The position numbers and the translations under genes are program-made. This document shows positions 1,394-23,920 of a DNA stretch of 39,139 nt, in pieces. Under the pieces are notes generated by a model that was given only the letters and a program-made list of their open reading frames with translations, was not told where the DNA came from and did no database searches. Where the stretch lies: NCBI GenBank assembly GCA_039714935.1, contig JBDLIJ010000002.1:1-39139 (forward strand). The letters are read 5' to 3'. Each line of letters starts with the position of its first letter. Within the stretch, counting starts at the first letter, position 1. The DNA is from Bacteroidota bacterium. GTDB taxonomy: Bacteria > Bacteroidota > Bacteroidia > Bacteroidales > B18-G4.

Positions 1394-1395
1394 CG

Positions 1396-2265: not shown

Positions 2266-2267
2266 TA

Positions 2268-3745: not shown

Positions 3746-3781
3746 TTATTTTTATTATCTTGCAAACTAAATATAGCTGTT

Positions 3782-5501: not shown

Positions 5502-5523
5502 TCCTAAACCAATTTCTTACAAC

Positions 5524-8214: not shown

Positions 8215-8245
8215 TGCTCTTGATAAGACACTGATTTAGTTGTAG

Positions 8246-8274
8246 AGCCTCCTGATTATTCAGGGGGCTTTTTT
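8246..8274 (+). terminator. Intrinsic terminator after the TonB-dependent receptor gene
   Basis: agcctcctg-attatt-cagggggct (9 bp including one G.U pair) followed by a T6 run. Confidence 0.7.
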
Positions 8275-8962
8275 AATATTGATATCCCATCAGCTTAATT
8301 TCCCTTTCAAATCTTTTCGCAATGAAGTCTGCTTCTTCTTTACTCAGTATCTCCCGATAATTGCGTTTATCCTGTCTGTACTGTGATTTTGCCCGATGGT
8401 CTGGCATGAAAAGAGGATCATTTAACCCTAGAGTGTTTGCCAATTCTGGAAGAGCCTGATCCATCTCTTCATATCGATAGATCTTGTCAACAAGCACATC
8501 GTCATCATCAGTGTACATGTCATACCCCCTGATGGCATCGCCCTTGTCGTGAAGCAAATAATCCATGATGGTATTGAAGTTTCCTTTTCTGTTCCTGTGG
8601 TGATAATGCGAAATGACCTTGTCCCAGGGATTGCGCTCAAAACAAAACTTATAATAACTATTCCATATTTTTTGTGGGATGAGATCTTTTATCTCCTGCG
8701 CTGAAATATGGTTGTAAAACAATGCTTGTTGTCCATTTATGATCAATCGCTTCCACTCTTTTGTCTTATAATATTTTTTAGGAACAAAGAAGTTTTGCGG
8801 TCCCATGTGCCCAAGCCTGGTCCTGACCTCCTCATCTTCTTTGGAGATTGGTGTTATAATATCGTTTTTGCCACATATACCGGAAAGGGCTATCTCCAAC
8901 GATGTCCCTGCAGCTTTGCGCAGTTTGATGAAGATGAATTTATGTCTATGGGAAATGATCAT
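8273..8962 (-). CDS. Sulfotransferase family 2-like protein
   Basis: The N-terminal HKFIFIKLRKAAGTS corresponds to the 5'-PSB loop (hIPKTgGTS). ERNPWDKVISHYHH corresponds to the 3'-PB motif (R.P..R..S.Y). Both motifs are shared with the three tandem paralogs at 14191-16254. Confidence 0.75.
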   Translation of the reverse strand: MIISHRHKFIFIKLRKAAGTSLEIALSGICGKNDIITPISKEDEEVRTRLGHMGPQNFFVPKKYYKTKEWKRLIINGQQALFYNHISAQEIKDLIPQKIWNSYYKFCFERNPWDKVISHYHHRNRKGNFNTIMDYLLHDKGDAIRGYDMYTDDDDVLVDKIYRYEEMDQALPELANTLGLNDPLFMPDHRAKSQYRQDKRNYREILSKEEADFIAKRFEREIKLMGYQY

Positions 8963-8991
8963 ATATGTTGAAAACAGATAAAGTCAGCTAT

Positions 8992-8999
8992 CAAAAATA
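8992..8999 (-). promoter_or_regulatory. Candidate -7 box (TAttTTTG) for the sulfotransferase gene at 8962
   Basis: Exact TAnnTTTG on the minus strand about 30 nt upstream of the start codon. Confidence 0.4.
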
Positions 9000-9011
9000 C
9001 TTAAAATAAAT

Positions 9012-9293
9012 ATGCATAAGTCATTATCATTTTCATATTTTCAAGCGATAATTAATGTTAAACAATTATGTTCAAGTCTATATTCAATAAGCAACACCGG
9101 CAAACAAGTTACAAAACGGCTCACTGAGATAACAAAAGATGATCCTGCAATCCTTTTAAAAGAGCATATTCTTGAGCTCTTTGGGGATGACTTTGAGATG
9201 GAGCAATATCATGAGATCATGATGGAAGGTAATACGGAGGATGATACCCCCGGATTCATGATTGTACTTGGACGTACAACAACAACGGACTGA
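9012..9293 (+). CDS. Hypothetical small acidic protein; doubtful ORF
   Basis: It is the only ORF in a 354-nt gap between two minus-strand genes. The first third is AT-rich and looks non-coding, and no family was recognised. Confidence 0.25.
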   Translation: MHKSLSFSYFQAIINVKQLCSSLYSISNTGKQVTKRLTEITKDDPAILLKEHILELFGDDFEMEQYHEIMMEGNTEDDTPGFMIVLGRTTTTD

Positions 9294-9316
9294 TATAAAA
9301 ATGGCCAGGGAAACCT

Positions 9317-10240
9317 TCATTGTTGGTCAACATGGTGAAGGTATTTTTCCATATGCCCCCAGTTGATATACTCCGGTTTATTTTTCCATTCTTCAGCCAA
9401 CTGGTTAACATACTGATTGATAATATGTTCGGTTCTGTCTTTCCGGCTCTGGTCTTCTTTTCCTTTATCCAGTGGTCTTCTGATATCGACAGTTATCTGA
9501 CCATGCTTACCGGGCATAATAAATAAGGGCATGATCTCAGCCCCTGTGCTTAAAGCCAGCTCGGCATAGCTTCCCCTGAAGCCTCTGAGTTTACCGATAA
9601 AAGGAAAAGTTATGCTGGATTTACCGTGATAACCATCACCAAGCACGTGAATAATGCCTCCTTCTTCGAGGACATGTTTTGCTTTAATCATTAACTTAAA
9701 AAGATCCGCATCTGAGAAACTGTCAAAGACAAGTGGGTTTGATTTTCTATGCTGGTTTATTCCCGTAAACTTCAATGAATTGGCGGCTCCTACGCCGACA
9801 ATGGTGTGGAATTCTTTATATCCCATCCTTGGAAACATTGAAATGGCAATCTCTGCCAATCCAACATGGCTGCCCAGCATAATGACACCTCTCCCTTTTT
9901 CGTAATGCTCCTGAAAAATATCAAGATTATTTATATGAATATATTTCTTGAATTTGCGATCGCTCAAATTAGACATTGCCATGACACGCCATTTTTTAAG
10001 AAAAAAGGCGTTAAGCATTTTGCTGATCAATTCGGGATTGCTTTCCTTTATGCCTGTTTCCTGCAAAAATGTATTGATCAGGTGTACTTTCTTTCTAAAG
10101 TACTCATTCCTGGCATATGAGGTGTTGCAAAACCACCCGATCATAGCTAAACCTGTTCTGTATGGTATTCTTTTTCCACCGCGGGCTGATGTAAAATAAT
10201 TTTTAAATCTGTTGACAATTTGCTTTTTATTGATCTTCAT
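9317..10240 (-). CDS. LpxL/HtrB-family (lipid A biosynthesis-type) acyl-carrier-dependent acyltransferase
   Basis: By-eye alignment to E. coli LpxL shows three parallels. GSHVGLAE matches the H-x4-E catalytic motif (GIHFLTLE). MIKAKHVLEEGGIIHVLGDGY matches MIKALKKGEVVWYAPDHDY. KPEYINWGHMEKY matches APEQYMWLHRRFK. Length is similar (307 vs 306 aa). Confidence 0.7.
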   Translation of the reverse strand: MKINKKQIVNRFKNYFTSARGGKRIPYRTGLAMIGWFCNTSYARNEYFRKKVHLINTFLQETGIKESNPELISKMLNAFFLKKWRVMAMSNLSDRKFKKYIHINNLDIFQEHYEKGRGVIMLGSHVGLAEIAISMFPRMGYKEFHTIVGVGAANSLKFTGINQHRKSNPLVFDSFSDADLFKLMIKAKHVLEEGGIIHVLGDGYHGKSSITFPFIGKLRGFRGSYAELALSTGAEIMPLFIMPGKHGQITVDIRRPLDKGKEDQSRKDRTEHIINQYVNQLAEEWKNKPEYINWGHMEKYLHHVDQQ

Positions 10241-10244
10241 GTTT

Positions 10245-12035
10245 TTACTCTTGCAATTGTATGATTGTTAGTGCTAATTCTTCAATTGTTGGTGTTTCAA
10301 TGAAACTATCAATTTCAATTTTGATGTTAAACTGCTTTTCGATGGTATCGAAAGCTACAAATAGCTTAAGCGAATCGTGCGCAGCCTCAAGGATGTTTTC
10401 GGTCACACCTATTGGATATACTTCAAGTTGTCTTTCGAAGATGGAAACCAATTGTTCTTCTACCGGGTTCTTTGCATGTTTAATGTCACGATTGTCAGCT
10501 AAGCTCTCCCAATGGGGATCCGGGAGGGAGCGATAATCAGTTTTTCCGGATTCAGTCTTTGGAAGGGTATCAAGCTGCATGATATAGGGAGGTACCATAT
10601 ATTCGGGCAGCCTTCTGACCAGGGAGTTCTTTATATCAGCCATCTCAACAGACTTGTCAGGACTGCTTACATAGTAGCCGACAAGCATCTTGTTTGCCTG
10701 AGGATCTTCTTTAAGGGCGACGGCAACCTCCTGTATGTCTTCATTCGAGAGAAGTGTGTTTTCAATTTCCCCAAGATCAGCACGTTGCCCGCGTATCTTT
10801 ACCATAGCATCCTTTCGCCCGACATGAACGATGAGCCCATCTGCATCTTTATAGGCGAGATCACGGCTTCGAAATGTCCTGTGCCCGTCATGATTATGAA
10901 AATCCCTTTTGGTAAGTGAAGGATTATTCCAGTACCCTAAAGCAGTGTAATTGCTGTGGATGACCATTTCTCCGACGATGTTGGGATCGCATTCCTCTCC
11001 GCCTTCATTAACAATATCAATATCCATCCCTTCAATAGCATTCCCTATAGGGATAATATTATGTTTTAAAATTGTATCGTGTTGGATGCGAAATGCCCTT
11101 GCCAGGTATAATTCAGTGCTGGCATAAATATTTATGATCTCAGTGTGTCGTTTAAGGAAAGGCCATATCTGTTTGATATCATTATGGTACAATGATTCAC
11201 CTCCCAGGAGGAGAATCCTGAGTTTGGAAAACTTGAAGCCTTTATTTAACGTAACCCTGAAATGCCTGAGTACTGAAGGAATCATAAGGCTGATTGTTAT
11301 CCCATGAGAAATAAAAAAGTCAGCCAGGCTGGGAAACCCCTTTTTCTTAAGGTCATACATATGCATAGTCCCGCCGTTAAGCATTGCTCCCAGGAAAGGC
11401 ATGGCATGGGCCGAGAATCCAATGGAAAAGTAATATGAAAAAATATCTTCAGGTGTGATATCGATAAATTCGGAAAAGCGTTTAGTAAAGTGAAGCTGGT
11501 TTTTATGGCTGGTAAATACTCCCTTCGGTTCACCGGTAGATCCTGATGTGTAGAGGATGTGCGCAATATCATCAGGCCTGGGTTTTATATTGGGCTCACT
11601 TGTATTTGTTATGAAATTTATTTCATCAATATTTATTACAACTGCAGCACTGGCAATGGCTTTCACCTGCCCGTAGTTTTCATTATCAGTAATAATGGCA
11701 GATGCCATAGAATCTTTCACTGCAAATTCAAAACGATGTGCCGGCCAGGCTGTGTCAAGAGGAACATATGCATTCGCTGCTTTTAGTATTCCAAGGATGG
11801 AAATGAACTGTTGTATGCTGTCAGACAGAAAAAAAGCTACTTGCTTCTGCTTTGTCGTTAAGCCAAGAATTTCATTTGCAATGACATTGGCCTTATTGTT
11901 TAAAGCATCATAAGTGATGCTCTCATTAGCATCACTTATGGCAATTTTGTCGGGAAACATGCTTGCCATGAGCTCAAAGCGTTCAGTAAGACTCTGGTCT
12001 ATGGTGTCAAAAGGAATATGCTTTGCTTTTTTCAT
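10245..12035 (-). CDS. Stand-alone NRPS-like adenylation domain fused to a carrier protein (A-PCP didomain)
   Basis: A3 is LYTSGSTGEPKG, A5 is NIYASTE, A7/A8 is RSRDL..GRKDAMVKIRGQRADLGEIE, A9 is LPEYMVPP and A10 is SGKTDY. A C-terminal carrier helix follows with AHDSL (phosphopantetheine Ser). No C or TE domain is present. Confidence 0.9.
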   Translation of the reverse strand: MKKAKHIPFDTIDQSLTERFELMASMFPDKIAISDANESITYDALNNKANVIANEILGLTTKQKQVAFFLSDSIQQFISILGILKAANAYVPLDTAWPAHRFEFAVKDSMASAIITDNENYGQVKAIASAAVVINIDEINFITNTSEPNIKPRPDDIAHILYTSGSTGEPKGVFTSHKNQLHFTKRFSEFIDITPEDIFSYYFSIGFSAHAMPFLGAMLNGGTMHMYDLKKKGFPSLADFFISHGITISLMIPSVLRHFRVTLNKGFKFSKLRILLLGGESLYHNDIKQIWPFLKRHTEIINIYASTELYLARAFRIQHDTILKHNIIPIGNAIEGMDIDIVNEGGEECDPNIVGEMVIHSNYTALGYWNNPSLTKRDFHNHDGHRTFRSRDLAYKDADGLIVHVGRKDAMVKIRGQRADLGEIENTLLSNEDIQEVAVALKEDPQANKMLVGYYVSSPDKSVEMADIKNSLVRRLPEYMVPPYIMQLDTLPKTESGKTDYRSLPDPHWESLADNRDIKHAKNPVEEQLVSIFERQLEVYPIGVTENILEAAHDSLKLFVAFDTIEKQFNIKIEIDSFIETPTIEELALTIIQLQE

Positions 12036-12055
12036 TTTAGTATTTATTACAGGCG

Positions 12056-14194
12056 CTATGTTGATTTGATAATACTTTCATATACATTCAACATCTCCAG
12101 GGTACTTTTTCTTGTTGAGAACCTGAGAGATTGTTTCATGGCTTTTTTTCCCAGATCATTTCTCAATTCATTATTAAATACCATCTGTTCATATTTATCG
12201 CAAATATCTTCTACACTGTATGGGTCTGCGCCCAGGCCGCCATCACTCGCAACTTCAGGCATGGAGCTGTTGTTTCCATAGATTACCGGTGTGCCACAAC
12301 GCATGGCTTCCAGCAATGGCAGGCCAAAGCCTTCATAGTAGGAAACATAACTTAGCGCCAGGGCTTCAGAATATAGGGCCGACAGGTCGCTGTCATCAAT
12401 AAATCCTGTAAAAGTAATGAGATCGCTGTATCTCACATGCTGTTTCATTTTCCATCCTTGCTTACCAGCCACTACGAGGGAGAGGTTTAGCCCTTTATGC
12501 TTTTTATGAAGCATCAGAAAGGCGCTAATCGAATGATGTAGATTTTTTCTTGGTTCGATAGTGGAGAGAAGCAAGATGAATGGCATGTCTTTTCGGATCC
12601 CATACTTATCTCTATGTTTACCACTATCCTCTTTGTTAACCTGGTATAGGAATTTGTCTTCTTCAACCGATTCATAAACAAGGTGAAGGCTTTCTTCCGG
12701 CAGGGAGAGAAATTTTTTAGAATCCTGCAATGTCGAATTTGAAACTGCAATTACATGGGCTTGCTTCTTCTGAATGAGCTTTAACCCTTTTGCAGCATTC
12801 CTGATATTTATCCCGGTATGAAATTTCGGAAACAGTTTATGTGTGAAGTCGTGAATGGTAAACACCAATGGTACCCTGGTATACTTAAAAGGCCAGTAAT
12901 GTTGTTGTAAGGGGATGTGTATCAGGTCATAGTGTGAGATCTTTTCTGATATCGCCCTAAGTTCCTGTTCTTGTCTGTATCTTAGATATACTGTGTACAA
13001 CATTCTGACAGGGAACATTAAAAGACCTCTGATCCAGTTTAGGAAGCTGAGCATGTACTTTTTTGTCAGATCATAGCTTTTATGAAAGATCATGATATCA
13101 CGCTCTGTCAGCCAGTTGATCCAGTTTTCGGGTACCAGCTCTTGAATGAATTGCTCTATCTTTTCAAAAAAGCCTTTTTTGTTTACCGGTCTGGACTTGC
13201 TGCTATCATCTTTGATTGTATCACTGCCGGTATCAAAATCCGCTTCCATTTTTCTGGCATATTCCTGAAGCGGTATAATATCTTTATTGATCAGCAGGTC
13301 AATTTCCCATTTACTTTTATCATTAACTGTAATAGGGATCAATCCTTTGATCAGTCCTGCTAAATAACGTTTAACGCCATCATTGTCGCTCGTATCCATC
13401 TTGTTGGCTTCGAGCAGGATATGGTATTTTCTGTTAGGGGCAGGGGAGGGGGTGCCCATTTTTTTCAGTATGAGGTGGTCAAGGTCAGGATCGGGAAGTG
13501 ATAAGCTTCCATCCCTGCTATAACCAAGCGCTTCCATCGTATTGCCATGGAAAGACCAGAATAGATCGTGCAGCTCATCGGGCATTTCATCTTGCCAGCC
13601 TCCCGAAATCCCTTTGCGAAATGCTTTCTCCGAAAGGTTTTTAGATGCTGTGTCGCTATATCCCCAGCTTTTTCTACCTCCATAGGCTGCATCGCCTTTT
13701 TTAAGGTTGTCAAAAGTAGGGAGCTTGCTAATATCCGGGCTGGGGAGATCATACACTGTCCTGATCCTTTCGACTACGCCAATGGGATCTGTCAGCAGGT
13801 CTTCATAGCGGATGATCAGATCGGCCCTTTCAACCCAGCTTTTAACATTATGTGACCAACCACCGAAAAAGGTATCTTTTTCCGCAAAGATGGCGGCTTT
13901 TAGGTTCTCATAGTAGTCAGAACCCGGAGCAACAATATCTGACCGTTGATGTGCGATGGAAACAAGTGCATCACGTCCGTCCCTGACAAGGTAAATCGAT
14001 TTGATATTGGTGTCGTTGGGTTCGAGTTGGTGAGGGAGGAGGTGTGTTTTTACAAAAGGGTGATCGAAGTAACTCTCCTCCAGTGGATGATCTTTCTCAC
14101 GGTGAAATTCGCCCGAGCTTAATCCATATACTTCAAAAAGTATATTTCTGACATATGTGTTGCCCGAACGGGGAAAAGATGCTATCCAGATCAT
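12056..14194 (-). CDS. Bifunctional sulfotransferase (N-terminal) and GT4 glycosyltransferase (C-terminal) fusion
   Basis: The N-terminus has [11 protein letters not shown] (5'-PSB) and [12 protein letters not shown] (3'-PB). The C-terminus has YYEGFGLPLLEAMRCGTPVIYGNNSSMPEV (GT-B Glycos_transf_1). It is a single 712-aa ORF. Confidence 0.85.
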   Translation of the reverse strand: MIWIASFPRSGNTYVRNILFEVYGLSSGEFHREKDHPLEESYFDHPFVKTHLLPHQLEPNDTNIKSIYLVRDGRDALVSIAHQRSDIVAPGSDYYENLKAAIFAEKDTFFGGWSHNVKSWVERADLIIRYEDLLTDPIGVVERIRTVYDLPSPDISKLPTFDNLKKGDAAYGGRKSWGYSDTASKNLSEKAFRKGISGGWQDEMPDELHDLFWSFHGNTMEALGYSRDGSLSLPDPDLDHLILKKMGTPSPAPNRKYHILLEANKMDTSDNDGVKRYLAGLIKGLIPITVNDKSKWEIDLLINKDIIPLQEYARKMEADFDTGSDTIKDDSSKSRPVNKKGFFEKIEQFIQELVPENWINWLTERDIMIFHKSYDLTKKYMLSFLNWIRGLLMFPVRMLYTVYLRYRQEQELRAISEKISHYDLIHIPLQQHYWPFKYTRVPLVFTIHDFTHKLFPKFHTGINIRNAAKGLKLIQKKQAHVIAVSNSTLQDSKKFLSLPEESLHLVYESVEEDKFLYQVNKEDSGKHRDKYGIRKDMPFILLLSTIEPRKNLHHSISAFLMLHKKHKGLNLSLVVAGKQGWKMKQHVRYSDLITFTGFIDDSDLSALYSEALALSYVSYYEGFGLPLLEAMRCGTPVIYGNNSSMPEVASDGGLGADPYSVEDICDKYEQMVFNNELRNDLGKKAMKQSLRFSTRKSTLEMLNVYESIIKST

Positions 14195-14889
14195 GCTTTC
14201 AGTTTCATTCGTTCTTCCCTTAGTTCTATTGCCTGTTCATATATCTCATAGTCGACTTCGTTTAAACGTCTGATCTTATCCAGGGTTTCTTCATCAATTT
14301 CCGGTTTGTCGCCTGTAATATTATGTTCAAAGATCTTAAAATCTTTCCATCCCAGCATATCGGATAATTGTTCAAGATCTTCTTTATAATGCTCTGTAAG
14401 GCCTATGAAATAAAATTCCTCAGGGGCCATTCCATGGAGAAACTTTGATATACGATTTCTGTTAGCTTCGGCACTGGCATACTCGATAAGGCTCTTCTGC
14501 ATCTTGGAAAGGATGTTTAAGCCTTTTGCTTCTTCGTTCACTTCATTTATTAATACCTTTTCCAGGTAATAATAATTTGAAATAACACGTTCGGCCGGTT
14601 CCCGAATCCATGTAATAAAGGGTGCTTTCCTTGAGATGTCAAAGTTGTTTGTTAAATGTTTACAGGAGAAATGGCCATGCAGAACATGTATTCCTCTTTT
14701 TAGCTTTGATCCTGTGAAAACCTCCTCGTTAAGCTCCACCTGGCTCCGGATATCTATTCTGGCTACATGCTCTTCCCCATAAACTTCCTTTAGAATATTA
14801 CGGAAGCTGGTGCCTGCTGTTTTAGGAATGTGCAAAGAGACAAGTTTTACATTTGTCTTTATTTTTTCGCTGGTATTAAATAAGCCCAT
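14191..14889 (-). CDS. Sulfotransferase family 2-like protein (tandem paralog A)
   Basis: Motifs are LVSLHIPKTAGTSF and TWIREPAERVISNYYY. There is a 4-nt overlap with the downstream gene. Confidence 0.8.
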   Translation of the reverse strand: MGLFNTSEKIKTNVKLVSLHIPKTAGTSFRNILKEVYGEEHVARIDIRSQVELNEEVFTGSKLKRGIHVLHGHFSCKHLTNNFDISRKAPFITWIREPAERVISNYYYLEKVLINEVNEEAKGLNILSKMQKSLIEYASAEANRNRISKFLHGMAPEEFYFIGLTEHYKEDLEQLSDMLGWKDFKIFEHNITGDKPEIDEETLDKIRRLNEVDYEIYEQAIELREERMKLKA

Positions 14890-17830: not shown

Positions 17831-17836
17831 TGCTCT

Positions 17837-18634
17837 TTATACTTTTTCTATTGCTTTGTGGAAATATTTTTTAAACACCACAAGCCCAATAATGAGTACA
17901 ATACCTGCATACGCAAAGTCGTATGCTGTAATAAACCAGTCAGGCTCTTTCCCATACATGATCACATCCCTTGAATTGATAATAATACCTGCAATGGGAT
18001 TAAGGTACAAGAGTTGTGGTATCATTTCAAAAACCTTCTGCTTTGCAAAAAATATCGGATTGATCCAAAACATCAGCAACAAAAACAAATCCCATATTTG
18101 AGTGATGTCCTTGAGGTAAACGTGGATAGTAGATAAGATCAGGCTTAGACCAAGGGCGAGAATAACCAGATTTAAAATATATAATGGATAATACAGTAGC
18201 TTCCATGTTAATGGTATCTGCATAAGCTGCAAGATGATAATGAAAACGAACAGGTTGACAATAAGTCCGATAAGGCTTGTTAAGACAGAGGAGTAATAAA
18301 CATCTAATTTGTTGAACCGTATATTTTCAAAAAGATAGCGTTTGCTCCTGATTACTGCGATCCCTTTTTTCGTTGCTTCCTGAAAATACATCCAGATAAT
18401 AATTCCTGAAAAGATGTATAAGCCGTAATGCGGAATGTCTTTGGCAAAAACATATGAAAATACAATGTAATATATCAGAATACGTATTAATGGGAAAACA
18501 AATGCCCAAAAAATACCAAGAATATTGGTGCTGTACCTTAGTTTAAAATCAGTTTTTGCTAAAATCCATATTCTTTCCAGCCGATTATTTTCTGGTAATA
18601 AAGAAATAGTGCTGCCACTGAACATTCCCGCCAT
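17837..18634 (-). CDS. ABC-2 type polysaccharide exporter permease (Wzm/TagG-like)
   Basis: 265 aa and about 6 TM segments. The N-terminal region FKLRYSTNILGIFWAFVFPL is typical of ABC2_membrane. It is paired with the Wzt-like ATPase. Confidence 0.85.
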   Translation of the reverse strand: MAGMFSGSTISLLPENNRLERIWILAKTDFKLRYSTNILGIFWAFVFPLIRILIYYIVFSYVFAKDIPHYGLYIFSGIIIWMYFQEATKKGIAVIRSKRYLFENIRFNKLDVYYSSVLTSLIGLIVNLFVFIIILQLMQIPLTWKLLYYPLYILNLVILALGLSLILSTIHVYLKDITQIWDLFLLLMFWINPIFFAKQKVFEMIPQLLYLNPIAGIIINSRDVIMYGKEPDWFITAYDFAYAGIVLIIGLVVFKKYFHKAIEKV

Positions 18635-18650
18635 TTGATTCTGCTTTTGA

Positions 18651-18658
18651 CAAAGATA
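18651..18658 (-). promoter_or_regulatory. Candidate -7 box (TAtcTTTG) for the wzm-led minus-strand operon
   Basis: Exact TAnnTTTG on the minus strand about 17 nt upstream of the ATG at 18634. Confidence 0.45.
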
Positions 18659-18689
18659 AATAATTTAGCATAGTATAAGCGTTTTTTGA

Positions 18690-18697
18690 TATATTTG
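18690..18697 (+). promoter_or_regulatory. Candidate -7 box (TAtaTTTG) for the divergent plus-strand operon
   Basis: Exact TAnnTTTG 13 nt upstream of the ATG at 18710. It lies inside the TTG-extended ORF, which argues for the shorter start. Confidence 0.45.
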
Positions 18698-18709
18698 GGC
18701 TGGTGCAGG

Positions 18710-20593
18710 ATGCTTATGAAGAAAGATAAAAATAAACCGCTTAAGAAGAGAATAACCTGGCTGCAAAAAATTATTCCGGCAGCGGGCATCATATTGATCG
18801 TAAGTGGTTTTATTGCGTATTCGAATACTTTTGATGCATCCTTCCAATGGGACGACTTGCCACAAATATTGGATAAGGATGTTGTGCATGACCCCGCTAA
18901 CTTTCTGAGTTTTGATGCCTGGAGAAATGTGAATCTTAGGCCGTTCTCACAGTGGACGTTCTCACTTAATTATGTTGCCGGGGGCGATCATGTTGCAGGC
19001 TATCACCTTGTTAACCTCTTGCTTCATATCCTGACTGCTTTCCTGATATTTCTGTTTTCCCGTTTTACGATAGGCCTGCTCACAGGTGAAGAAAGCCTTG
19101 ATCAAAGGCTTAAAGATGTGAGCGCATTGTTTATTGCACTGCTTTTTCTGCTTCATCCTTTACAGACCATGGCCGTGACATATATTGTGCAACGGATGAC
19201 CATCCTGGCTGCCCTGTTTTATGTGCTGGCTGTATTTTTCTACGCGAAAGGACGCATACTGTATCTGGGAAATAAGGAAAAAAAGGGCATTGGCCTGTTG
19301 GTGCTGGCCATATTTGCTGGTATTCTTGGTGTGTTGTCAAAGCAGAATGCCGTTACTTTTCCTGTAGCTTTCCTTTTGTACGAATTATTTTTTGTCAGGA
19401 AGGCCAACGGACAGATGTGCAGAAAATATATTATCACCGGTGGATCTGCTATTGTGCTTACCTTTCTGATCATTCTTGTTTCAGGGGTATTGCCGGTGGA
19501 GACTTCCAACATTACACGCATTGAATATCTCAGTGCCCAGTTTGGCATATTCCATAAATATATACTTCTTATCTTATTTCCTGTCAGCCAGAATGTCGAT
19601 TATTTCATACGCGTAGAGCCACCCTTGTTTGGGGCAGCGCAATATCTGGGTATATTCATAATACTTGCTATGGCGGGAGGGGCAAGCTATCTCTTTAAAA
19701 GAAATAGACTGATCGCCTTTGGAATTTTCTGGTTCCTGATGACCATGTCTGTTGAATCAAGCCTCATCCCAATCAGGGATATCATGATGGAACATCGTAT
19801 GTATCTTCCCCTGCTGGGGATAGGAATGGTGGCGGCCGGGCTGATCATGCAATTTGTGGCTTTCAATTCCAGGCTTGGCTTGTATATTGCCGGGATCGTC
19901 ATCTTTATCATCCTGGGCACCGCAAGCTTTAACCGTAATAAGATTTGGAAAACGAAACTTACCCTATGGGAAGATTGCCTGGAGAGAAACCCTGAAAATC
20001 CGCGGGCCATGAATAATCTCGGGCTCGTCATCAAGATCAATGCTGATGCCGCCCCAACCTTGCAAGCACGACAGCGAGACCTTCGTACGGCCATTACATA
20101 TTTCAGTAATGCTATGAAGTGCGATACGATATTTGTTCAGGCTTACCTCAATCGTGGACTGACATGGTTTGAGTTAAAAGAATATAACAAAGCCCTCAGC
20201 GATATTAACACGGTAGTGGAGCATCAGCCTAAGGAAGAGTACCTGAGTTATTATGTACAGGGAGTGGCATTAGCCAAGCAGGGGGAGATCGAAGCCGCCG
20301 CTACTATGCTTAATAAGGCTGCACTAATGAAGAATGACTTTGCTCTGATACACACCTGGCGTGGTCTTGTTTATGCTGAATTGAAGAATTATCAGATGGC
20401 CCTGGATAGCTATCTTATGTCACTTAAGCTTAATCCTGACCAGGCGATACTGTATGTTAACGTTTCCAATATGTATTACTACCTTCGCGAGTACCAGGAT
20501 GCCCTCATGTGGATAACAAAAGCACAGGATGCGGGTGAGCAGGTCGACTATGAATATATTCACATACTTGAAGAACAGGTCACAGGGAGATAA
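18710..20593 (+). CDS. Polytopic membrane protein with C-terminal TPR repeats (TMTC/PMT-like, probable GT-C fold glycosyltransferase)
   Basis: The N-terminus reads YSNTFDASFQWDDLPQI..N..V, then RPFSQWTFSLNY...GYHLVNLLLHIL, as in the DUF1736/PMT_2-type family. About 10 TM segments follow. After roughly aa 430 there are TPR-like repeats (AYLNRGLTWFELKEYNKAL etc.). Confidence 0.75.
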   Translation: MLMKKDKNKPLKKRITWLQKIIPAAGIILIVSGFIAYSNTFDASFQWDDLPQILDKDVVHDPANFLSFDAWRNVNLRPFSQWTFSLNYVAGGDHVAGYHLVNLLLHILTAFLIFLFSRFTIGLLTGEESLDQRLKDVSALFIALLFLLHPLQTMAVTYIVQRMTILAALFYVLAVFFYAKGRILYLGNKEKKGIGLLVLAIFAGILGVLSKQNAVTFPVAFLLYELFFVRKANGQMCRKYIITGGSAIVLTFLIILVSGVLPVETSNITRIEYLSAQFGIFHKYILLILFPVSQNVDYFIRVEPPLFGAAQYLGIFIILAMAGGASYLFKRNRLIAFGIFWFLMTMSVESSLIPIRDIMMEHRMYLPLLGIGMVAAGLIMQFVAFNSRLGLYIAGIVIFIILGTASFNRNKIWKTKLTLWEDCLERNPENPRAMNNLGLVIKINADAAPTLQARQRDLRTAITYFSNAMKCDTIFVQAYLNRGLTWFELKEYNKALSDINTVVEHQPKEEYLSYYVQGVALAKQGEIEAAATMLNKAALMKNDFALIHTWRGLVYAELKNYQMALDSYLMSLKLNPDQAILYVNVSNMYYYLREYQDALMWITKAQDAGEQVDYEYIHILEEQVTGR

Positions 20594-20599
20594 ATCAGG

Positions 20600-21316
20600 A
20601 TGAAAGTATTAATTATCATACCCGTTTACAATGAAGCTGCAAGCATAGAGCAGGTGATCACAGACGTACACAAAGCATACCCTGACTTTGATATCCTGGT
20701 TGTGAACGACTCCAGCAAGGATGATTCAGCGCTTATCGCTGCCCGTACAGGTCTGGCTGAAGTGGTGAATCTGCCGTACAATCTCGGAATCGGAGGTGCG
20801 GTGCAAACTGGTTTCAAGTATGCACGGGGAAAAGATTACGATATTGCCTTACAATTTGATGGCGATGGCCAGCATAAGGTTGTTGAAATTGAAAAACTGG
20901 TGAAAGTTGTAGAGAGCGGGCAGGCCGATGTGGTGATCGGCTCGAGATTTAATAAAAAGTCAAACGGCTTTACAACAAATGCCCTGAGGAGGATTGGGAT
21001 ACGTATTTTTCAGTTTGCCAGCTACCTCATGATAAGTCAGCGGATCACTGACCATACCTCCGGCTTCAGAGCCTATAACAGGAAGTCGTTTTGCTTTCTT
21101 GCGGATAATTACCCGACTGACTTTCCTGAACCGGAAGTGGTAATCCTGCTCGGCCGTAACCGCTTTATCATGAAAGAAATATTTACACAGATGCTTCGCC
21201 GTCAGGGAGGCATCTCATCCATCCCGGTGGCAAAAGGTCCTTATTATATGGTAAAGGTCCTGCTGGCCATGTTTATGGCTGCCATCAGGTCGAGGATCAT
21301 TTTACAACATAAATAA
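20600..21316 (+). CDS. GT2 polyprenyl-phosphate glycosyltransferase-like (DPM1/ArnC/GtrB-type)
   Basis: Motifs are IIIPVYNEAASI, LVVNDSSKDDS and FDGDGQH, with a C-terminal hydrophobic segment. Confidence 0.9.
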   Translation: MKVLIIIPVYNEAASIEQVITDVHKAYPDFDILVVNDSSKDDSALIAARTGLAEVVNLPYNLGIGGAVQTGFKYARGKDYDIALQFDGDGQHKVVEIEKLVKVVESGQADVVIGSRFNKKSNGFTTNALRRIGIRIFQFASYLMISQRITDHTSGFRAYNRKSFCFLADNYPTDFPEPEVVILLGRNRFIMKEIFTQMLRRQGGISSIPVAKGPYYMVKVLLAMFMAAIRSRIILQHK

Positions 21317-21324
21317 TATTGATC

Positions 21325-21693
21325 ATGGAAGAAATCAGCCAGATACAAATTGTTGCCATCGCAGTAAGCTTATTTCTGTTTCTTTTTATCATGTACCTGA
21401 TCAGGAGCCAACGCCTGAAAGAAGAATACTCCCTGCTATGGATATTTTTCAGCCTGGTATTCATACTATTCTCATTCTGGCGCAGTGGCCTTGACTACGT
21501 TTCTGAATTCCTGGGCGTCGCATACCCGCCTGCCGCCCTGTTTATGATATTGCTGATGGCCATATTTCTTATCCTGATTGAATTTTCTATCATCATCAGC
21601 AAGCTGGCCGAAAGAAATAAAATCCTGGCCCAGGAGATAGGCTTGCTTAAACAAAAACTGGAGAATATTGAACATGGAAGTAATGAAGAATGA
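21325..21693 (+). CDS. DUF2304-like small membrane protein
   Basis: LIRSQRLKEEYSLLWIFFSL, two further TM segments and a C-terminal coiled region are present. This gene type classically follows GT2 genes. Confidence 0.7.
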   Translation: MEEISQIQIVAIAVSLFLFLFIMYLIRSQRLKEEYSLLWIFFSLVFILFSFWRSGLDYVSEFLGVAYPPAALFMILLMAIFLILIEFSIIISKLAERNKILAQEIGLLKQKLENIEHGSNEE

Positions 21694-21709
21694 TGAATGA
21701 AGAATGGGC
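21682..21709. repeat. Degenerate heptamer tandem repeat (AATGAAG-like, x4)
   Basis: The tract reads aatgaag aatgatg aatgaag aatgggc. It spans the stop codon of the DUF2304 gene and the convergent intergenic gap. Confidence 0.7.
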
Positions 21710-21719
21710 AAGTAGCTGG

Positions 21720-22817
21720 TTACTGATGATCAGAACCAAGTTTTTTATACAGCTTTAAATATTGCTCCATTGTGTGTGTAAAGTGGAATTGTTTCACAGG
21801 GCTGGTGAACCATTCGCCTCTGTGAGCTTTTTGCAGGGCTTCCATCAATCCCTTATCATCAAAGCTATCCATAATAATATGCTTGCCGCAGACTACTTCT
21901 GTAAGTGCACCTTTCCCCGAGGAGATGATTGGGATGCCCAGGGCAATGCTTTCTGCTGCAGCATAACAAAAGCCTTCGCTATAAGAAGGAATAAGCACGC
22001 AGCTTGAGTGTTGAAGCTCTTTTTGGAGTTGGTCTGTGTCCAGGTGATGCAGGAGTGTATATCTTTCTTCCGGGAGCTTGCCAAGGGCATTAGTAACACG
22101 ATTAAGGAAAGATGACGGATTTTTGGGAATGATCATCTTCAGGTGTGCTGCCTGATATTGCTTTAAAATCCCGGGCGCGGCCTCAAGGATATGGTCGATG
22201 CCCTTGGATATACCAAGCCTGCCGAAATAGGTAAACACAAAATTGTCAGGTGGGATGTAAGCAGAAGCATCATATTCCGAATATTCCAGGCCGTTGTATA
22301 TCCGGAGTACTTTGTTTTTTCTTACACCCAGCTTAATAAGTGATTCGGCGGTATAGTCCGAGACAGCGATATATTTGTGAAATCCAAAGTGTAAAATTAA
22401 TTTCTCGTAGAGGAAGTAGAGTATTTTACTGATCAGGCTTGCATAAGGTAACTTAAACCATAGTTTACCCCATGCTTCATGGAAGGTGATGATCACTTTC
22501 TTTCGCGTGAGCCATCCCGCAATCCTGGCTGGAAAGGCAGCATTGAATGAGGTCGTATGAATGATGTCAGCCTTACGTGCCTCCTTTAGCATACCCCATA
22601 CGCCGAAGAATGTGAAAAGAAAACGTGATGATAGCTTGAGGCGTTTGATGTTGACTCCCTTAAGCTCTTCCCTGGCAGGAAGGTCATTGCGGAAGCGTGT
22701 TGTGATCACTCTTACATCATGGCCCTGCACCACAAGTTCCTCTGCAAGCGATTTAAACAGCTTTTCAATGCCCCCGATATTGGGATAATACAACTCGAGT
22801 ATGAATAGTATTTTCAT
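21720..22817 (-). CDS. GT4 family glycosyltransferase (GT-B)
   Basis: MKILFILELYYPNIGGIEK is at the N-terminus and PSYSEGFCYAAAESIALGIPIISS is in the C-terminal domain. Confidence 0.9.
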   Translation of the reverse strand: MKILFILELYYPNIGGIEKLFKSLAEELVVQGHDVRVITTRFRNDLPAREELKGVNIKRLKLSSRFLFTFFGVWGMLKEARKADIIHTTSFNAAFPARIAGWLTRKKVIITFHEAWGKLWFKLPYASLISKILYFLYEKLILHFGFHKYIAVSDYTAESLIKLGVRKNKVLRIYNGLEYSEYDASAYIPPDNFVFTYFGRLGISKGIDHILEAAPGILKQYQAAHLKMIIPKNPSSFLNRVTNALGKLPEERYTLLHHLDTDQLQKELQHSSCVLIPSYSEGFCYAAAESIALGIPIISSGKGALTEVVCGKHIIMDSFDDKGLMEALQKAHRGEWFTSPVKQFHFTHTMEQYLKLYKKLGSDHQ

Positions 22818-23920
22818 GATATCAGGAGGTTTTTTATTTCTTTATCAAACTTCAGGGCATGTTCTTCCCAGCTGAACTTTTCAGCTTGCTTTATGGCTTT
22901 ATCCGATAATTCTGTTCGCAGCTTCTCATCTGATGAGATCTCTGCCATGGCATCTGCCAGTTCTTTTGGCGATTCGGGATTGAAGTACAGGGCAGCGTCC
23001 CCGCCAACTTCTGGCAGGCTGGAAGTACTTGACAAGAGGCAGGGGGTGCCGCACGACATGGCCTCCACAACTGGCAGGCCGAAGCCCTCGTATTTTGATG
23101 GAAACACAAAAGCTGAGGCATGACTGTATAAGGCTGGCATCTGCGCTCTGTCTATGAAACCTGTCAATATGATGTCTTGCCTGTATGGGTGTTTTGCCAG
23201 ATGCCTGTAAAAAGATTTGCTCTTCCAACCTTTCTGTCCGGCAATTACCAGCTGCTGCTTCAAGCCCGTACGTTCTTTATAAAGTGCAAATGCTTCAAGA
23301 AGACAGCTCAGGTTCTTCCTGGGTTCAATGGTTCCCGTGAAAAGAAAATAGTTGCTTTCCTTGAGATCGAATGCCGGGTCTGGCAATTGCTCAGTTTTTC
23401 GGATGGCCTGGTCTTTTCCCAGGTAGATGTTAAGCGTTTTGTTTACAGCCGAATCAAGATAGTCAATAACATCCTTCCTTGTATTCTTTGAATTTGTGAT
23501 GATGAGGGAGGCCCTTTTTAGAATGCTTTTAAGGAATATTCTTTGTAAAAGCTGGCTGTGAAAAGGATGAAACTCAGGGAAGAGTACAGGGGTGAGGTCA
23601 TGTATCACTGTAAGCCTTTTTATCTTTTTGGGAAGGTTAAACGGTCCAAAATGTGCCGGCTCCACCACCATATCAGCTTTCAGCCTCCTGATCTTCCAGG
23701 GAATGATGCAGAACATCCGCAAGGCAGCATAGCCCGGGAAATGGAAATTTCTGATAATAATCTGCCGTTCAGGAGGAAAGAGATCATCTTTTTTCCTGCG
23801 GATGATATAATATGCTCCCTGCTTATCGATCTTTCCCAACTCTTTCACCAAACTTCGGGTATAGTAGTGAATACCTGCACGCTGATTATCAAGAGGGTCT
23901 GCCAGGATTATAATTCGCAT
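22814..23920 (-). CDS. GT4 family glycosyltransferase (GT-B)
   Basis: PSKYEGFGLPVVEAMSCGTPCLLSSTSSLPEVGG is present. There is a 4-nt overlap with the downstream GT4 gene. Confidence 0.9.
   Translation of the reverse strand: MRIIILADPLDNQRAGIHYYTRSLVKELGKIDKQGAYYIIRRKKDDLFPPERQIIIRNFHFPGYAALRMFCIIPWKIRRLKADMVVEPAHFGPFNLPKKIKRLTVIHDLTPVLFPEFHPFHSQLLQRIFLKSILKRASLIITNSKNTRKDVIDYLDSAVNKTLNIYLGKDQAIRKTEQLPDPAFDLKESNYFLFTGTIEPRKNLSCLLEAFALYKERTGLKQQLVIAGQKGWKSKSFYRHLAKHPYRQDIILTGFIDRAQMPALYSHASAFVFPSKYEGFGLPVVEAMSCGTPCLLSSTSSLPEVGGDAALYFNPESPKELADAMAEISSDEKLRTELSDKAIKQAEKFSWEEHALKFDKEIKNLLIS

Follow-up and report, generated by a model that had tools for sequence, protein, structure and literature searches.

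The 39,139-nucleotide stretch of marine Bacteroidales DNA analysed here (the window) carries a gene cluster that is real, widely conserved and uncharacterised. Its most likely product is a sugar chain, heavily sulfated and decorated with acyl groups, that is assembled on a lipid carrier in the membrane and then pumped across the inner membrane. From homology and gene context, we put the probability that the locus produces a sulfated glycan through an ABC-transporter-dependent route at about one half. Sulfated capsules made by this route have a chemical precedent in Cobetia marina (PMC11766843).

Gene content and organization

Pfam domains were called on the window ORFs at or above the gathering score. 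An earlier note, made from the sequence alone, had listed sulfotransferases, Wzm, Wzt, GT4 glycosyltransferases, an A-PCP didomain, an LpxL-type acyltransferase and a GT-C/TPR, GT2 and DUF2304 set; all were in place and confirmed by profile, with the sulfotransferase, GT4, ABC, acyltransferase, AMP-binding and PP-binding models each matched. It had also considered the gene order unlike that of any characterised locus, and our literature search gave no description of the block. As it had stated, no initiating phosphoglycosyl transferase, Wzx/Wzy, nucleotide-sugar or PAPS-synthesis genes occur among the window ORFs scanned, and profile searches of these ORFs found neither a ligase nor an outer-membrane exporter in the window. 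These absences count against the ABC-transporter-dependent route. A few window ORFs match no family, e.g. 27511-28509, 29762-31042 and 32510-32986. The weight formerly placed on the absent initiating transferase is not supported: WecA is commonly encoded elsewhere in ABC-transporter-dependent pathways, or the GT2 may itself start the glycan on undecaprenyl phosphate.

The minus-strand operon begins with Wzm (17837-18634) and ends with the acyltransferase (9317-10240). Its junctions, proposed to be 20 nt or less, are indeed gaps or overlaps of 0-20 nt with one exception, the SULT-like gene, which overlaps Wzt. In start-codon analysis, this gene has no start codon 3' of the Wzt stop and must therefore overlap it, by about 65 nt from ATG 17127, the likely start, or by 122 nt with the longest ORF (to 17184). 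The divergent promoter region (18635-18712) holds matches to TAnnTTTG, the Bacteroidota -7 promoter consensus, in both directions, at 18651-18658 (-) before Wzm and at 18690-18697 (+) before ATG 18713; these are consensus matches only. The sulfotransferase gene at 8273-8962 (minus strand) is a stand-alone, separate transcription unit. The promoter box ascribed to it, TATTTTTG, does lie at 8992-8999 (-), 30 nt upstream of ATG 8962, and is suggestive only, because the window as a whole holds no excess of TAnnTTTG (25 matches vs 36 expected).

Conservation of the locus

A synteny search, as the earlier note had advised, found the same gene order in five other contigs, with proteins 40-75% identical; the arrangement is thus not chance. 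The whole block is syntenic in the related loci L001, L004, L005 and L091, from uncultured Bacteroidales, at 40-75% protein identity. Variant loci keep the fusion described below, Wzm/Wzt and sulfotransferases, and swap accessories. L087 is a minimal Wzm-Wzt-sulfotransferase-fusion-sulfotransferase locus, and L088 adds a Wzy_C ligase-like-GT4 fusion and MBOAT with AlgX-type O-acylation, both polymer-type functions. In some loci the fusion and a GT4 occur without an exporter nearby; Wzm/Wzt are thus not strictly required by the core enzymes, which counts against the ABC-transporter-dependent route. In its favor, two unrelated loci encode SulP sulfate permeases no more than ~8 kb from the fusion. 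No initiating phosphoglycosyl transferase was found in any of the ~12 loci examined.

Sulfotransferases and glycosyltransferases

Six sulfotransferase domains, two SULT-like and four Sulfotransfer_2, are encoded in the locus, and all six keep both PAPS-binding motifs, in line with their earlier assignment as PAPS-type. No membrane segment is predicted in any sulfotransferase or GT4, which fits the cytoplasmic assembly proposed before. The SULT-like protein (Sulfotransfer_1, 16255-17127, minus strand; PF00685, 100 bits) has PRSGNT/RDGRD motifs and aligns full-length with cytosolic sulfotransferases, including the catalytic KTH histidine and an RKG-like motif.

Three small tandem Sulfotransfer_2 paralogues (PF03567, minus strand) comprise paralogues a (15586-16254, 41 bits) and b (14876-15589, 46.2 bits), both HIPKTGG-type, and c (14191-14889), which is HIPKTAG-type. 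Their profile matches heparan sulfate 2-O-sulfotransferase (E=1.6e-10) and 6-O-sulfotransferase (E=2.9e-7), with the PKT..TS, HGH and RDP..R..S motifs aligned. Both are polysaccharide sulfotransferases, and we count the resemblance in favor of the ABC-transporter-dependent route. Paralogue c has the clearest one-to-one orthologues of the three, always directly upstream of the fusion (42-63% identity in L001, L004, L005, L006 and L007). The stand-alone gene (8273-8962; PF03567, 27.3 bits vs a cut-off of 22) had been classed as HIPKTGG-type. Its motifs are instead KLRKAAGTS, YNH and ERNPWDKVIS, with 16-20% identity to the other three, and on sequence it is a separate, divergent Sulfotransfer_2 subfamily. 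Its orthologue in L001 is 57% identical, and the gene is absent from L004, L005 and L091.

The signature enzyme of the locus is the sulfotransferase-GT4 fusion (12056-14194, minus strand), with Sulfotransfer_1 at residues 45-221 and Glycos_transf_1 at residues 526-687. Of its 422 homologues, 120 were listed, nearly all of them full-length fusions, and the more than 100 full-length relatives include cultured Halieaceae. The PRSGNT, KTH, RDGRD..S and FRKG..G..W motifs and the GT4 E-x7-E are invariant in 18 fusion sequences down to 43% identity. That one sulfotransferase and one GT4 are joined in a single protein suggests a coupling of sulfation to chain growth.

GT4-A (22814-23920) and GT4-B (21720-22817; Glyco_transf_4 and Glycos_transf_1), both on the minus strand, bring the GT4 domains to three. 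GT4-A and the GT4 domain of the fusion are paralogues: by tblastn, GT4-A is 31-39% identical to the orthologous fusion domains of related loci. A GT4-A-profile gene lies beside the fusion in most loci examined, across phyla (L003, L085, L086, L089 and L090), and direct sequence matches to GT4-A are limited to L001, L003, L004 and L007. GT4-B is syntenic in L001 and L004.

Putative acyl activation and transfer

The A-PCP didomain (AMP-binding, AMP-binding_C and PP-binding; 10245-12035, minus strand) has the LgrA, TycA and GrsA adenylation domains as its closest solved structures, and its A domain is closer to NRPS domains than to fatty-acid ligases. In the A4 motif (F-S-A-H), Ser stands in place of Asp235 in four of four orthologues; the Asp that binds alpha-amino groups is missing from the A domain. 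The PCP serine (DSL) is conserved in orthologues. The acyltransferase matches Lip_A_acyltrans (45.6 bits vs 22.3) and, weakly, the NCBIfam models of LpxL and the PIM acyltransferase PatA. Its HX4E motif (SHVGLAE) is kept in three orthologues, and no membrane helix is predicted in it. Only 30 clusters of homologues were found, all in Bacteroidota, several of them on contigs that also carry the fusion.

The exporter and the size of the product

The nearest solved relatives of Wzm (ABC2_membrane, minus strand) are Aquifex Wzm (6m96/6oih, E=4e-19), TarG and the galactan exporter permease. Those of Wzt (ABC_tran, 17063-17830, minus strand) are Aquifex Wzt (6oih, E=6e-49), TagH/TarH and the mycobacterial RfbE galactan exporter. 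The pair is closest to exporters of (undeca)polyprenyl-diphosphate-linked polymers, namely Aquifex O-antigen Wzm-Wzt, TarGH/TagGH and the mycobacterial galactan exporter, and these structural relatives support the ABC-2 export predicted earlier. Wzt, at 255 aa, is a nucleotide-binding domain without a carbohydrate-binding extension and is hence predicted to lack end-cap recognition.

The earlier note had favored a short oligosaccharide or glycolipid. Refined, this view holds that a short polysulfated, acylated product, not polyprenyl-linked, is assembled in the cytoplasm and leaves through the ABC-2 system; its core, a sulfated di- or trisaccharide, would come from the fusion and GT4-A, and the A-PCP/LpxL pair would add lipid to it. 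A small glycan would suit the presence of three GT4 domains beside six sulfotransferases, as well as the minimal loci, in which one or two GT4 domains accompany three or four sulfotransferases and an exporter is sometimes missing; the ratio and the single-GT4 loci weigh against our preferred reading. LpxL-family enzymes acylate glycolipids, consistent with the weak matches noted above, and the lack of an initiating phosphoglycosyl transferase in the loci examined also fits. The exporter argues the other way, as O-antigen, teichoic-acid and galactan exporters score 170 bits against 76 for NodI, which reaches under half. So do the Wzy_C and MBOAT-AlgX accessories of L088, and the periplasmic GT-C module points to an intermediate that is anchored to the membrane on the periplasmic side. 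The proposed analogy with mycobacterial sulfolipid-1 is not supported: profile searches of the window gave no PKS, PapA-type acyltransferase or MmpL, and the adenylation domain is NRPS-like, not a fatty-acyl ligase. For a short product, lipochitooligosaccharide Nod factors (NodH sulfotransferase, NodA/NodF acylation, NodIJ ABC-2 export) or sulfolipid-1 on trehalose-2-sulfate would be the better analogy, but the same searches gave no NodA/B/C homologues. We therefore consider a short product unlikely.

A putative periplasmic glycosylation module

On the plus strand lie a TMTC-like protein (ORF 18686-20593, ATG 18713), a GT2 (Glycos_transf_2, 20600-21316) and a small DUF2304 membrane protein (21319-21693; PF10066, 89 bits). 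In the TMTC-like protein, a GT-C-fold domain of ~10-11 membrane helices precedes C-terminal TPR repeats (Pfam matches) that are probably periplasmic. Its AF2 models reach pLDDT 89 (full length) and 81 (N-domain), and the best fold matches of the N-domain are Pmt4, Stt3, ArnT and AglB. Residues D47-D48, R76-P77, K210, D296 and E360/R362/Y364 are invariant and correspond to TMTC motifs M1, M2, M4, M5 and M7 (PMC7801869).

The GT2 best matches the NCBIfam model of PpgS (E=8e-34), then AglJ, dolichyl-phosphate hexose transferase and ArnC, all under the equivalog cut-offs, and is predicted to be a GacI/PpgS/AglJ-like polyprenyl-phosphate glycosyltransferase. The DUF2304 protein belongs to the GacJ/Rv3632 family; GacJ binds and activates GacI, and the GacL logic is documented (bioRxiv 10.1101/180810). 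The three genes match this GacI/GacJ/GacL logic, with a parallel in PpgS/Rv3632/Rv3779. Together with the GT-C fold, these matches fit the outside glycosylation that had been suggested as possible. Two points tell against our preferred reading: no flippase for the polyprenyl-phosphate-sugar was identified, and the known role of TPR-bearing GT-C enzymes (TMTC) is protein O-mannosylation, not polysaccharide modification (PMC7801869).

A second alternative is sulfated protein glycosylation, which we regard as rather improbable. Here the GT2/DUF2304 pair would initiate on undecaprenyl phosphate, the GT4s extend, the sulfotransferases sulfate, Wzm/Wzt flip, and the TMTC-like GT-C enzyme transfer the glycan to periplasmic or surface proteins picked via its TPR domain, in parallel with AglJ-started haloarchaeal dolichyl-phosphate-linked sulfated glycans and eukaryotic TMTC O-mannosylation. 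Such a scheme would account for the absence of a phosphoglycosyl transferase from every related locus, and it agrees with the AglJ and dolichyl-phosphate hexose transferase matches and with a TPR domain, TMTC motifs and GT-C fold typical of protein-directed enzymes; several TMTC-like homologues are named 'protein O-mannosyl-transferase' by JGI. In gammaproteobacteria, moreover, a GT2, a DUF2304 protein and a polytopic membrane protein share an operon with the fusion, sulfotransferases and GT4s, and in three loci this set is co-operonic with the fusion; the association also counts for our preferred route. Against the scheme, that membrane protein has no detectable homology to the TMTC-like protein. 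GT-C enzymes with polyprenyl-monophosphate donors normally transfer single sugars, and the solved Wzm/Wzt relatives carry diphosphate-linked polymers. L087 and L088, furthermore, lack the module yet keep the fusion, sulfotransferases and Wzm/Wzt.

That two unrelated systems merely adjoin, the module serving independent protein or LPS glycosylation and the minus-strand operon alone making the sulfated product, would suit the module's absence from some fusion-bearing loci and the 2324 bacterial matches to TMTC-like proteins, most presumably without sulfotransferase neighbours, but is very improbable given that the module adjoins the operon in every one of the five Bacteroidales versions, even at 40% identity, and that the analogous gammaproteobacterial set is co-operonic with the fusion.

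Proposed pathway

In the ABC-transporter-dependent route that we prefer, the three GT4 domains would extend a polyprenyl-linked glycan at the cytoplasmic face of the inner membrane, with the fusion and its paralogue GT4-A as the conserved core of chain extension. Up to six PAPS-dependent sulfotransferases may place sulfate on different positions of the chain while it is lipid-linked and still in the cytoplasm. The A-PCP protein would activate a carboxylic acid other than an alpha-amino acid and load it as a thioester, and the soluble LpxL-family enzyme would move this acyl group onto the lipid-linked glycan. Wzm/Wzt would then carry the product across the inner membrane without end-cap recognition. 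In the periplasm, the TMTC-like GT-C enzyme may add a further sugar from a polyprenyl-phosphate-sugar made by the GT2 and its DUF2304 activator, by analogy with GacI/GacJ/GacL or PpgS/Rv3632/Rv3779. The enzyme that initiates the glycan, the source of PAPS, export through the outer membrane and the final acceptor, be it lipid A-core, another lipid or a protein, would lie outside the parts described here. Bacterial production of sulfated glycans of animal or algal type is rarely known, and this widely conserved cluster most likely builds a heavily sulfated chain.

Organization of the locus

Every gene named in the earlier note is present in our ORF list and Pfam scans. The minus-strand operon runs from 18634 to 9317 and encodes, in order, Wzm (ABC2_membrane), Wzt (ABC_tran, 255 aa), a SULT-like sulfotransferase (Sulfotransfer_1, 100 bits), three tandem Sulfotransfer_2 proteins (the small sulfotransferases, 14191-16254), a 712-aa Sulfotransfer_1-GT4 fusion (12056-14194; hereafter the fusion), an AMP-binding/AMP-binding_C/PP-binding didomain (A-PCP) and a Lip_A_acyltrans protein (LpxL-like). 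After a 355-nt gap beyond the operon lies a lone Sulfotransfer_2 gene (8273-8962). A divergent operon (18713-21693) encodes a protein with membrane and TPR regions (18713-20593), a GT2 and a DUF2304 protein, and a convergent pair of GT4 genes, GT4-B and GT4-A, occupies 21720-23920.

The close spacing reported for the operon, with junctions of 20 nt or less, holds for most genes (gaps or overlaps of 0-20 nt) and fails for the first sulfotransferase, which overlaps the 3' end of wzt (17063-17184) by at least ~65 nt, from an ATG at 17127. This overlap is required because no start codon follows the wzt stop; the tblastn similarity of this sulfotransferase to its orthologue in the related Bacteroidales locus L001 also runs back into the overlap. 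The promoter boxes are consensus matches, and the consensus is not enriched across the window. As previously noted, phosphoglycosyl-transferase, Wzx/Wzy, nucleotide-sugar and PAPS-synthesis families are absent among the window ORFs scanned with Pfam, a few of which match no family. No cysDN/cysC genes occur in the whole 39-kb contig, and the Pfam scans found neither ligase nor sugar-precursor genes in the locus.

The stretch separating the LpxL-like gene from the lone sulfotransferase gene (8963-9316) contains a single ORF, on the plus strand (9012-9293), whose 93-aa product matches no family. At the equivalent position in L001 (14935-15636), a TPMT-like methyltransferase is encoded on the other strand, and methyltransferase genes are also present in the more distant loci L088 and L090. 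A GC-rich hairpin followed by a T-run (8244-8271), between the lone sulfotransferase gene and a convergent TonB-receptor gene, is likely a terminator.

Adjoining and convergent with the locus, the plus strand at 524-8214 encodes the TonB-dependent receptor, which bears a CarboxypepD_reg N-domain, together with a LivJ-type periplasmic binding protein (Peripla_BP_6), a 147-aa protein and a LivHMGF-type ABC importer. Such pairing of an outer-membrane receptor with a LIV-type importer is unusual. The receptor gene is adjacent in all five Bacteroidales versions of the locus, down to ~40% identity, and the other genes of this set are seen wherever the flank is long enough. Downstream of the locus (24047-27152) are two secreted-protein genes; the first product has 616 aa and carries GEVED, FlgD_ig and T9SS sorting domains, and the second has 359 aa and a weak, sub-threshold match to the thioester domain (TED). 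T9SS C-terminal sorting domains are found at 24047-25897 and 36303-39098; together with the CarboxypepD_reg-bearing receptor and with relatives found in Bacteroidales metagenome-assembled genomes, they mark the contig as Bacteroidota DNA. Three tRNA genes lie at 308-381 (-), 34308-34394 (+) and 34765-34839 (+), and the region from 34.1 to 35.4 kb contains, tRNA genes aside, no long ORF.

Six sulfotransferase domains

By sequence, the six domains belong to the PAPS-dependent sulfotransferase superfamily, as first proposed. The 5'-phosphosulfate-binding loop (PKxGTT-like) is kept in all six: it reads PRSGNT in both SULT-like domains, invariant in 18 fusion homologues, HIPKT(G/A)G(S/T)S in the three small sulfotransferases and KLRKAAGTS in the lone one, with K23 and G26 invariant. 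The 3'-phosphate-binding motif (R-x-x-x-x-R/D-x-x-S) is likewise kept throughout, as RDGRDALVS in both SULT-like domains, R(N/D/E)P(V/A)(D/E)RVISNY in the small sulfotransferases (shared form R-x-P-x-x-R-V-I-S-N-Y) and ERNPWDKVIS in the lone one, with R96, P98 and S104 invariant. The catalytic histidine is also retained, in a KTH that aligns with the histidine of cytosolic SULTs, in an HGH shared by the three small sulfotransferases that aligns with the HGH of heparan sulfate 2-O-sulfotransferase, and, in a differing context, in the YNH of the lone sulfotransferase. Its earlier description as a fourth HIPKTGG-type enzyme was imprecise: with these motifs and 16-20% identity to the small sulfotransferases, it represents a separate Sulfotransfer_2 subfamily.

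Mammalian cytosolic sulfotransferases align with the whole of the SULT-like protein (E=5e-17), in an alignment that spans PRSGNT (for PKSGTT), the catalytic KTH histidine, RDGRDALVS and an RKG-like C-terminal motif. In the fusion, the PAPS-binding and catalytic sulfotransferase residues and the GT4 E-x7-E are invariant over the 18 homologues, down to 43% identity, and both halves are therefore under selection. The sulfotransferase proteins have no predicted membrane segment or signal peptide-like start and so should be cytoplasmic, as the use of PAPS requires.

The small sulfotransferases resemble animal heparan sulfate sulfotransferases. A PDB search with a single sequence gave an insignificant match; a profile of 13 sequences was needed, and it matched heparan sulfate 2-O-sulfotransferase (E=1.6e-10) and 6-O-sulfotransferase (E=2.9e-7) with all three motifs aligned, covering the PAPS-binding motifs and the HGH catalytic region. 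The significant alignment spans only the N-terminal ~100 residues. Unlike the animal enzymes, the small sulfotransferases are soluble bacterial proteins of ~230 aa without a Golgi membrane anchor.

A putative acylation pair

The A-PCP is closest to the adenylation domains of the NRPS proteins LgrA, TycA and GrsA and keeps TSGSTGxPKG, GRxDxxxKxxG, PxxxxGK, the A10 lysine and the PCP serine. At the position of Asp235, which binds the α-amino group of amino-acid substrates, it has a serine (F-S-A-H versus F-D-x-S in both LgrA domains), and this serine is kept in four orthologues with identity as low as 40-59%. Because of this replacement, the predicted substrate is a carboxylic acid other than an α-amino acid. 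The approximate specificity code, which we take to be S-A-M-S-L-G-I-L-A-K from motif-based mapping onto GrsA, matches no code known to us. As speculation, the neighboring receptor and LIV-type importer might take up the acid that A-PCP activates.

The LpxL-like protein scores 45.6 bits against Lip_A_acyltrans (cut-off 22.3) and conserves the HX4(D/E) dyad as S-H-x4-E, with no predicted membrane helix. It falls far below the equivalog cut-offs for LpxL itself and is thus not a lipid A enzyme. Its clade is narrow, comprising only 30 clusters, all from Bacteroidota, several of which share contigs with the fusion. A PDB sequence search with this protein returned chance matches only.

Exporter and proposed lipid-linked assembly

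The permease and ATPase form a paired ABC-2 system related to known glycan exporters. The closest solved relatives of Wzt and Wzm are the subunits of the Aquifex aeolicus Wzm-Wzt O-antigen exporter (E=6e-49 and 4e-19, respectively), followed by the teichoic acid exporters TagGH/TarGH and then the mycobacterial galactan exporter; NodI reaches less than half the score. All of these Wzm/Wzt relatives carry polyprenyl-diphosphate-linked polymers. With only an ABC_tran domain in its 255 residues, Wzt lacks the carbohydrate-binding domain for a chain-terminating cap, a feature of one Wzt subtype only, and end-cap recognition is therefore not expected. For the same reason, we did not adopt sulfate as a chain terminator by analogy with the WbdD cap.

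An initiating WecA/WbaP-type polyprenyl-phosphate transferase was found neither in the window nor in ~12 related loci with 10-kb flanks. WecA is commonly encoded outside such loci, and the initiating enzyme may be encoded elsewhere in the genome.

The arrangement is like that of ABC-dependent O-antigen and wall-polymer assembly (Aquifex, E. coli O9a/Klebsiella O2a, TarGH and mycobacterial galactan) in its adjacent permease and ATPase, for which these are the closest solved relatives, and in the cytoplasmic GT4 enzymes encoded alongside. The O2a-type Wzt is likewise short and without a carbohydrate-binding domain. The locus differs from these systems in its six sulfotransferase domains, one of them joined to a GT4, in the pairing of A-PCP with an LpxL-type acyltransferase, and in carrying no initiating enzyme, ligase or sugar-precursor genes.

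A putative TMTC-like enzyme with a candidate GacI/GacJ-type module

In NCBIfam, the GT2 scores best against polyprenyl-phosphate glycosyltransferases, namely PpgS, AglJ, dolichyl-phosphate hexose transferase and ArnC, in each case below the equivalog cut-off. The DUF2304 gene (PF10066, 89 bits) starts 3 nt past the GT2 stop. GacJ and Rv3632, members of the DUF2304 family, are small proteins that bind and strongly activate GacI and PpgS, respectively (bioRxiv 10.1101/180810).

The N-terminal 425 residues of the membrane and TPR protein have no Pfam match even at E=10, including the GT-C/TMTC (DUF1736/PMT-type) models, and searching the PDB with a TM-domain profile gave no sequence-level match to a solved GT-C; TPR matches occupy the C-terminus. 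The predicted structure has a pLDDT of 89 over the full length and 81 for the N-domain. A fold search with the N-domain placed Pmt4 first (E=2e-3, probability 1.0), followed by Stt3, ArnT and AglB, with modest E-values and TM-scores of 0.3-0.5; a search with the full-length model returned TPR proteins only. Across 25 homologues, D47-D48, R76-P77, K210, D296 and E360/R362/Y364 are invariant or nearly so, and they fall at the TMTC motifs M1, M2, M4, M5 and M7 (as defined in PMC7801869), including the DD in loop 1. From the predicted fold, with its modest scores, and this motif correspondence, we identify the protein as a putative TMTC-like GT-C enzyme, whose TPR domain is probably periplasmic.

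With eukaryotic TMTC1-4 O-mannosyltransferases the protein shares the layout of an N-terminal multi-span GT-C and C-terminal TPR, the DD, RP, K, D and E-R-Y motifs in corresponding loops, and Pmt4 as best structural match. It is, however, a bacterial protein without a Pfam GT-C/TMTC model match, and it sits inside a putative sulfated-glycan locus.

The module also parallels GacI/GacJ/GacL and PpgS/Rv3632/Rv3779: a GT2, here a candidate polyprenyl-phosphate-sugar synthase, directly precedes a DUF2304 protein, a GT-C membrane enzyme is encoded alongside, and an ABC-2 exporter would serve the main chain. Unlike the Gac enzyme, the GT-C here carries a C-terminal TPR and TMTC-type motifs, and no GacK/Wzx or GtrA-type flippase family for a polyprenyl-phosphate-sugar was found in the window. 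As to the sugar, PpgS is only the best sub-threshold match of the GT2.

Conservation and variant loci

The fusion has 422 homologues, and nearly all of the 120 listed are fusions over their full length, annotated at most as 'glycosyltransferase'. A genome-collection scan with the fusion alignment was dominated by the generic GT4 pattern FGLPxLEAM: 4 of 80 loci matched the sulfotransferase part (two of them full-length), and the others were ordinary GT4 genes.

The complete block recurs, at 40-75% protein identity and together with the flanking TonB receptor and LIV-type importer, in four further Bacteroidales loci (L001, L004, L005 and L091), which carry 3-6 sulfotransferase domains. More distant loci keep the fusion and swap accessories. 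L087 has Wzm, Wzt, a sulfotransferase, the fusion and a sulfotransferase only. L088 encodes a sulfotransferase, a GT4, a Wzy_C (ligase-like)-GT4 fusion, Wzm, Wzt, a sulfotransferase, the fusion, an MBOAT, an AlgX-like protein, a second MBOAT and a methyltransferase, and L090 a sulfotransferase-GT4-sulfotransferase triple fusion with a GT4, a sulfotransferase and a methyltransferase. The Wzy_C (O-antigen-ligase-like)-GT4 protein of L088 (5501-7696) has 731 aa and the triple fusion of L090 (10001-13183) has 1060 aa.

In Halieaceae-type gammaproteobacteria (L003, L085 and L089), the fusion is accompanied by two sulfotransferases, two GT4s, a GT2, a DUF2304 protein and a polytopic membrane protein of 857-872 aa, with no ABC exporter. 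Its position suggests that the polytopic protein could serve as a GT-C equivalent; hhalign of the 872-aa protein against the TM-domain profile detected no homology. A conserved protein of ~355-365 aa is encoded after the fusion in L003 (12234-13295) and L089 (12204-13298); the L003 copy has ~5 predicted membrane helices and no family match. A role as flippase or as some other membrane partner is conceivable. In two unrelated loci (L086, 15448-16938; L089, 2004-4226), a SulP-family sulfate permease is encoded no more than ~8 kb from the fusion, and one of the two permeases has a cNMP-binding domain.

The invariant core is the fusion plus further sulfotransferases, with a second GT4 in most loci and none in L087. 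Around this core, the export, acylation and periplasmic steps are modular.

Proposed pathway and alternatives

Homology points to a sulfated glycan made by an ABC-transporter-dependent, lipid-linked route, to which we give a probability of about 0.5. In this pathway, the fusion, GT4-A (22814-23920) and GT4-B (21720-22817) would extend a polyprenyl-linked glycan at the cytoplasmic face of the membrane, and the six sulfotransferase domains would sulfate several positions, one of them while physically joined to a glycosyltransferase. The LpxL-like enzyme would acylate the glycan with an acid activated on A-PCP, and Wzm/Wzt would export it without recognizing an end cap. The TMTC-like GT-C would then add a periplasmic sugar from a polyprenyl-phosphate-sugar made by GT2/DUF2304.

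From transporter similarity and the L088 accessories, the product would be polymeric and lipid-linked. The earlier note had favored a short glycan or glycolipid. We now consider a short polysulfated acyl-oligosaccharide unlikely, since the transporter relatives, the heparan-sulfotransferase-like enzymes, the polymer-type accessories of L088 and the periplasmic glycosylation step favor a lipid-linked polymer. Sulfolipid-1, which had been put forward as the closest logic, shares with the Nod-factor pathway a sugar, a PAPS sulfotransferase, carrier-protein-dependent acylation and a dedicated exporter. Membership in the sulfolipid-1 pathway was rejected, as the window holds no Pks2/FadD23, PapA1/PapA2 or MmpL8 and no PKS, condensation-like or MMPL families. 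NodIJ is also an ABC-2 system, and Nod-factor logic would be the better analogy for a short product; membership was rejected here too, with no NodA/B/C and an exporter that resembles polymer exporters rather than NodI.

The consistent lack of a phosphoglycosyl transferase in the locus would be accounted for if the GT2 initiated glycosylation and the TMTC-like enzyme moved the sulfated glycan onto proteins, which we regard as quite improbable. A fuller version, to which we attach still less weight, has GT2/DUF2304 starting the glycan on undecaprenyl monophosphate, and for that reason no phosphoglycosyl transferase would ever be present; the GT4s and up to six sulfotransferases would elaborate it, Wzm/Wzt would flip it, and the TMTC-like GT-C would transfer it en bloc to proteins chosen by the TPR domain. 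If true, such a system would correspond in bacteria both to the sulfated dolichyl-phosphate glycans of haloarchaea and to TMTC O-mannosylation in animals. Least probable is that two unrelated systems are simply neighbors, as their cross-phylum co-occurrence speaks against it.

Relation to known sulfated glycans

The preferred reading, a lipid-linked sulfated polymer, belongs to an already known kind in two respects, as ABC-transporter-dependent glycan assembly and as a bacterial sulfated polysaccharide. Heavily sulfated glycans are regarded as animal and algal products; to our knowledge, bacterial examples are few and their enzymology is almost untouched. The capsule of Vibrio sp. KMM 8419 and cyanobacterial synechan, the latter made via Wzx/Wzy, are reportedly further bacterial sulfated glycans with PAPS-type sulfotransferases, and we know of no sulfotransferase-GT4 fusion, set of six sulfotransferase domains or A-PCP/LpxL pair in either. 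The sulfated capsule of Cobetia marina KMM 1449 is likewise a bacterial glycan with PAPS-type sulfotransferases and an ABC-transporter route, here of the Kps type (KpsMT/KpsCS/KpsED), with the PAPS genes inside a cluster of ~70 genes (PMC11766843); it is not known to have a sulfotransferase-GT4 fusion, six sulfotransferase domains or an A-PCP/LpxL pair. None of these three systems comes from Bacteroidota. Pfam scans found no KpsMT, KpsC/S or KpsE/D in the window, and membership among Kps (group 2/3) capsules was rejected on this gene content.

Our literature search found no published description of the block, which agrees with the earlier impression that its gene order matches no characterized locus. 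What is new is a Wzm/Wzt-type system of this kind in Bacteroidota, the sulfotransferase-GT4 fusion as a conserved core, up to six sulfotransferase domains, heparan-sulfotransferase-like enzymes, an acylation pair of A-PCP and an LpxL-family protein, and a TMTC-like GT-C with GacI/GacJ-type genes.

The locus represents a compact, conserved set of bacterial carbohydrate sulfotransferases, some of them similar to heparan sulfate 2-O/6-O enzymes, and it could supply soluble bacterial enzymes for the synthesis of sulfated polysaccharides. The sulfotransferase-glycosyltransferase fusion may tie sulfation to chain growth, and its presence in cultured Halieaceae makes the question open to experiment. 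Were the product a polysulfated polymer on the surface of abundant uncultured Bacteroidales, it would bear on organic-sulfur and carbon cycling in their habitats and on the source of the 'glycosaminoglycan-like' material reported in microbial aggregates.
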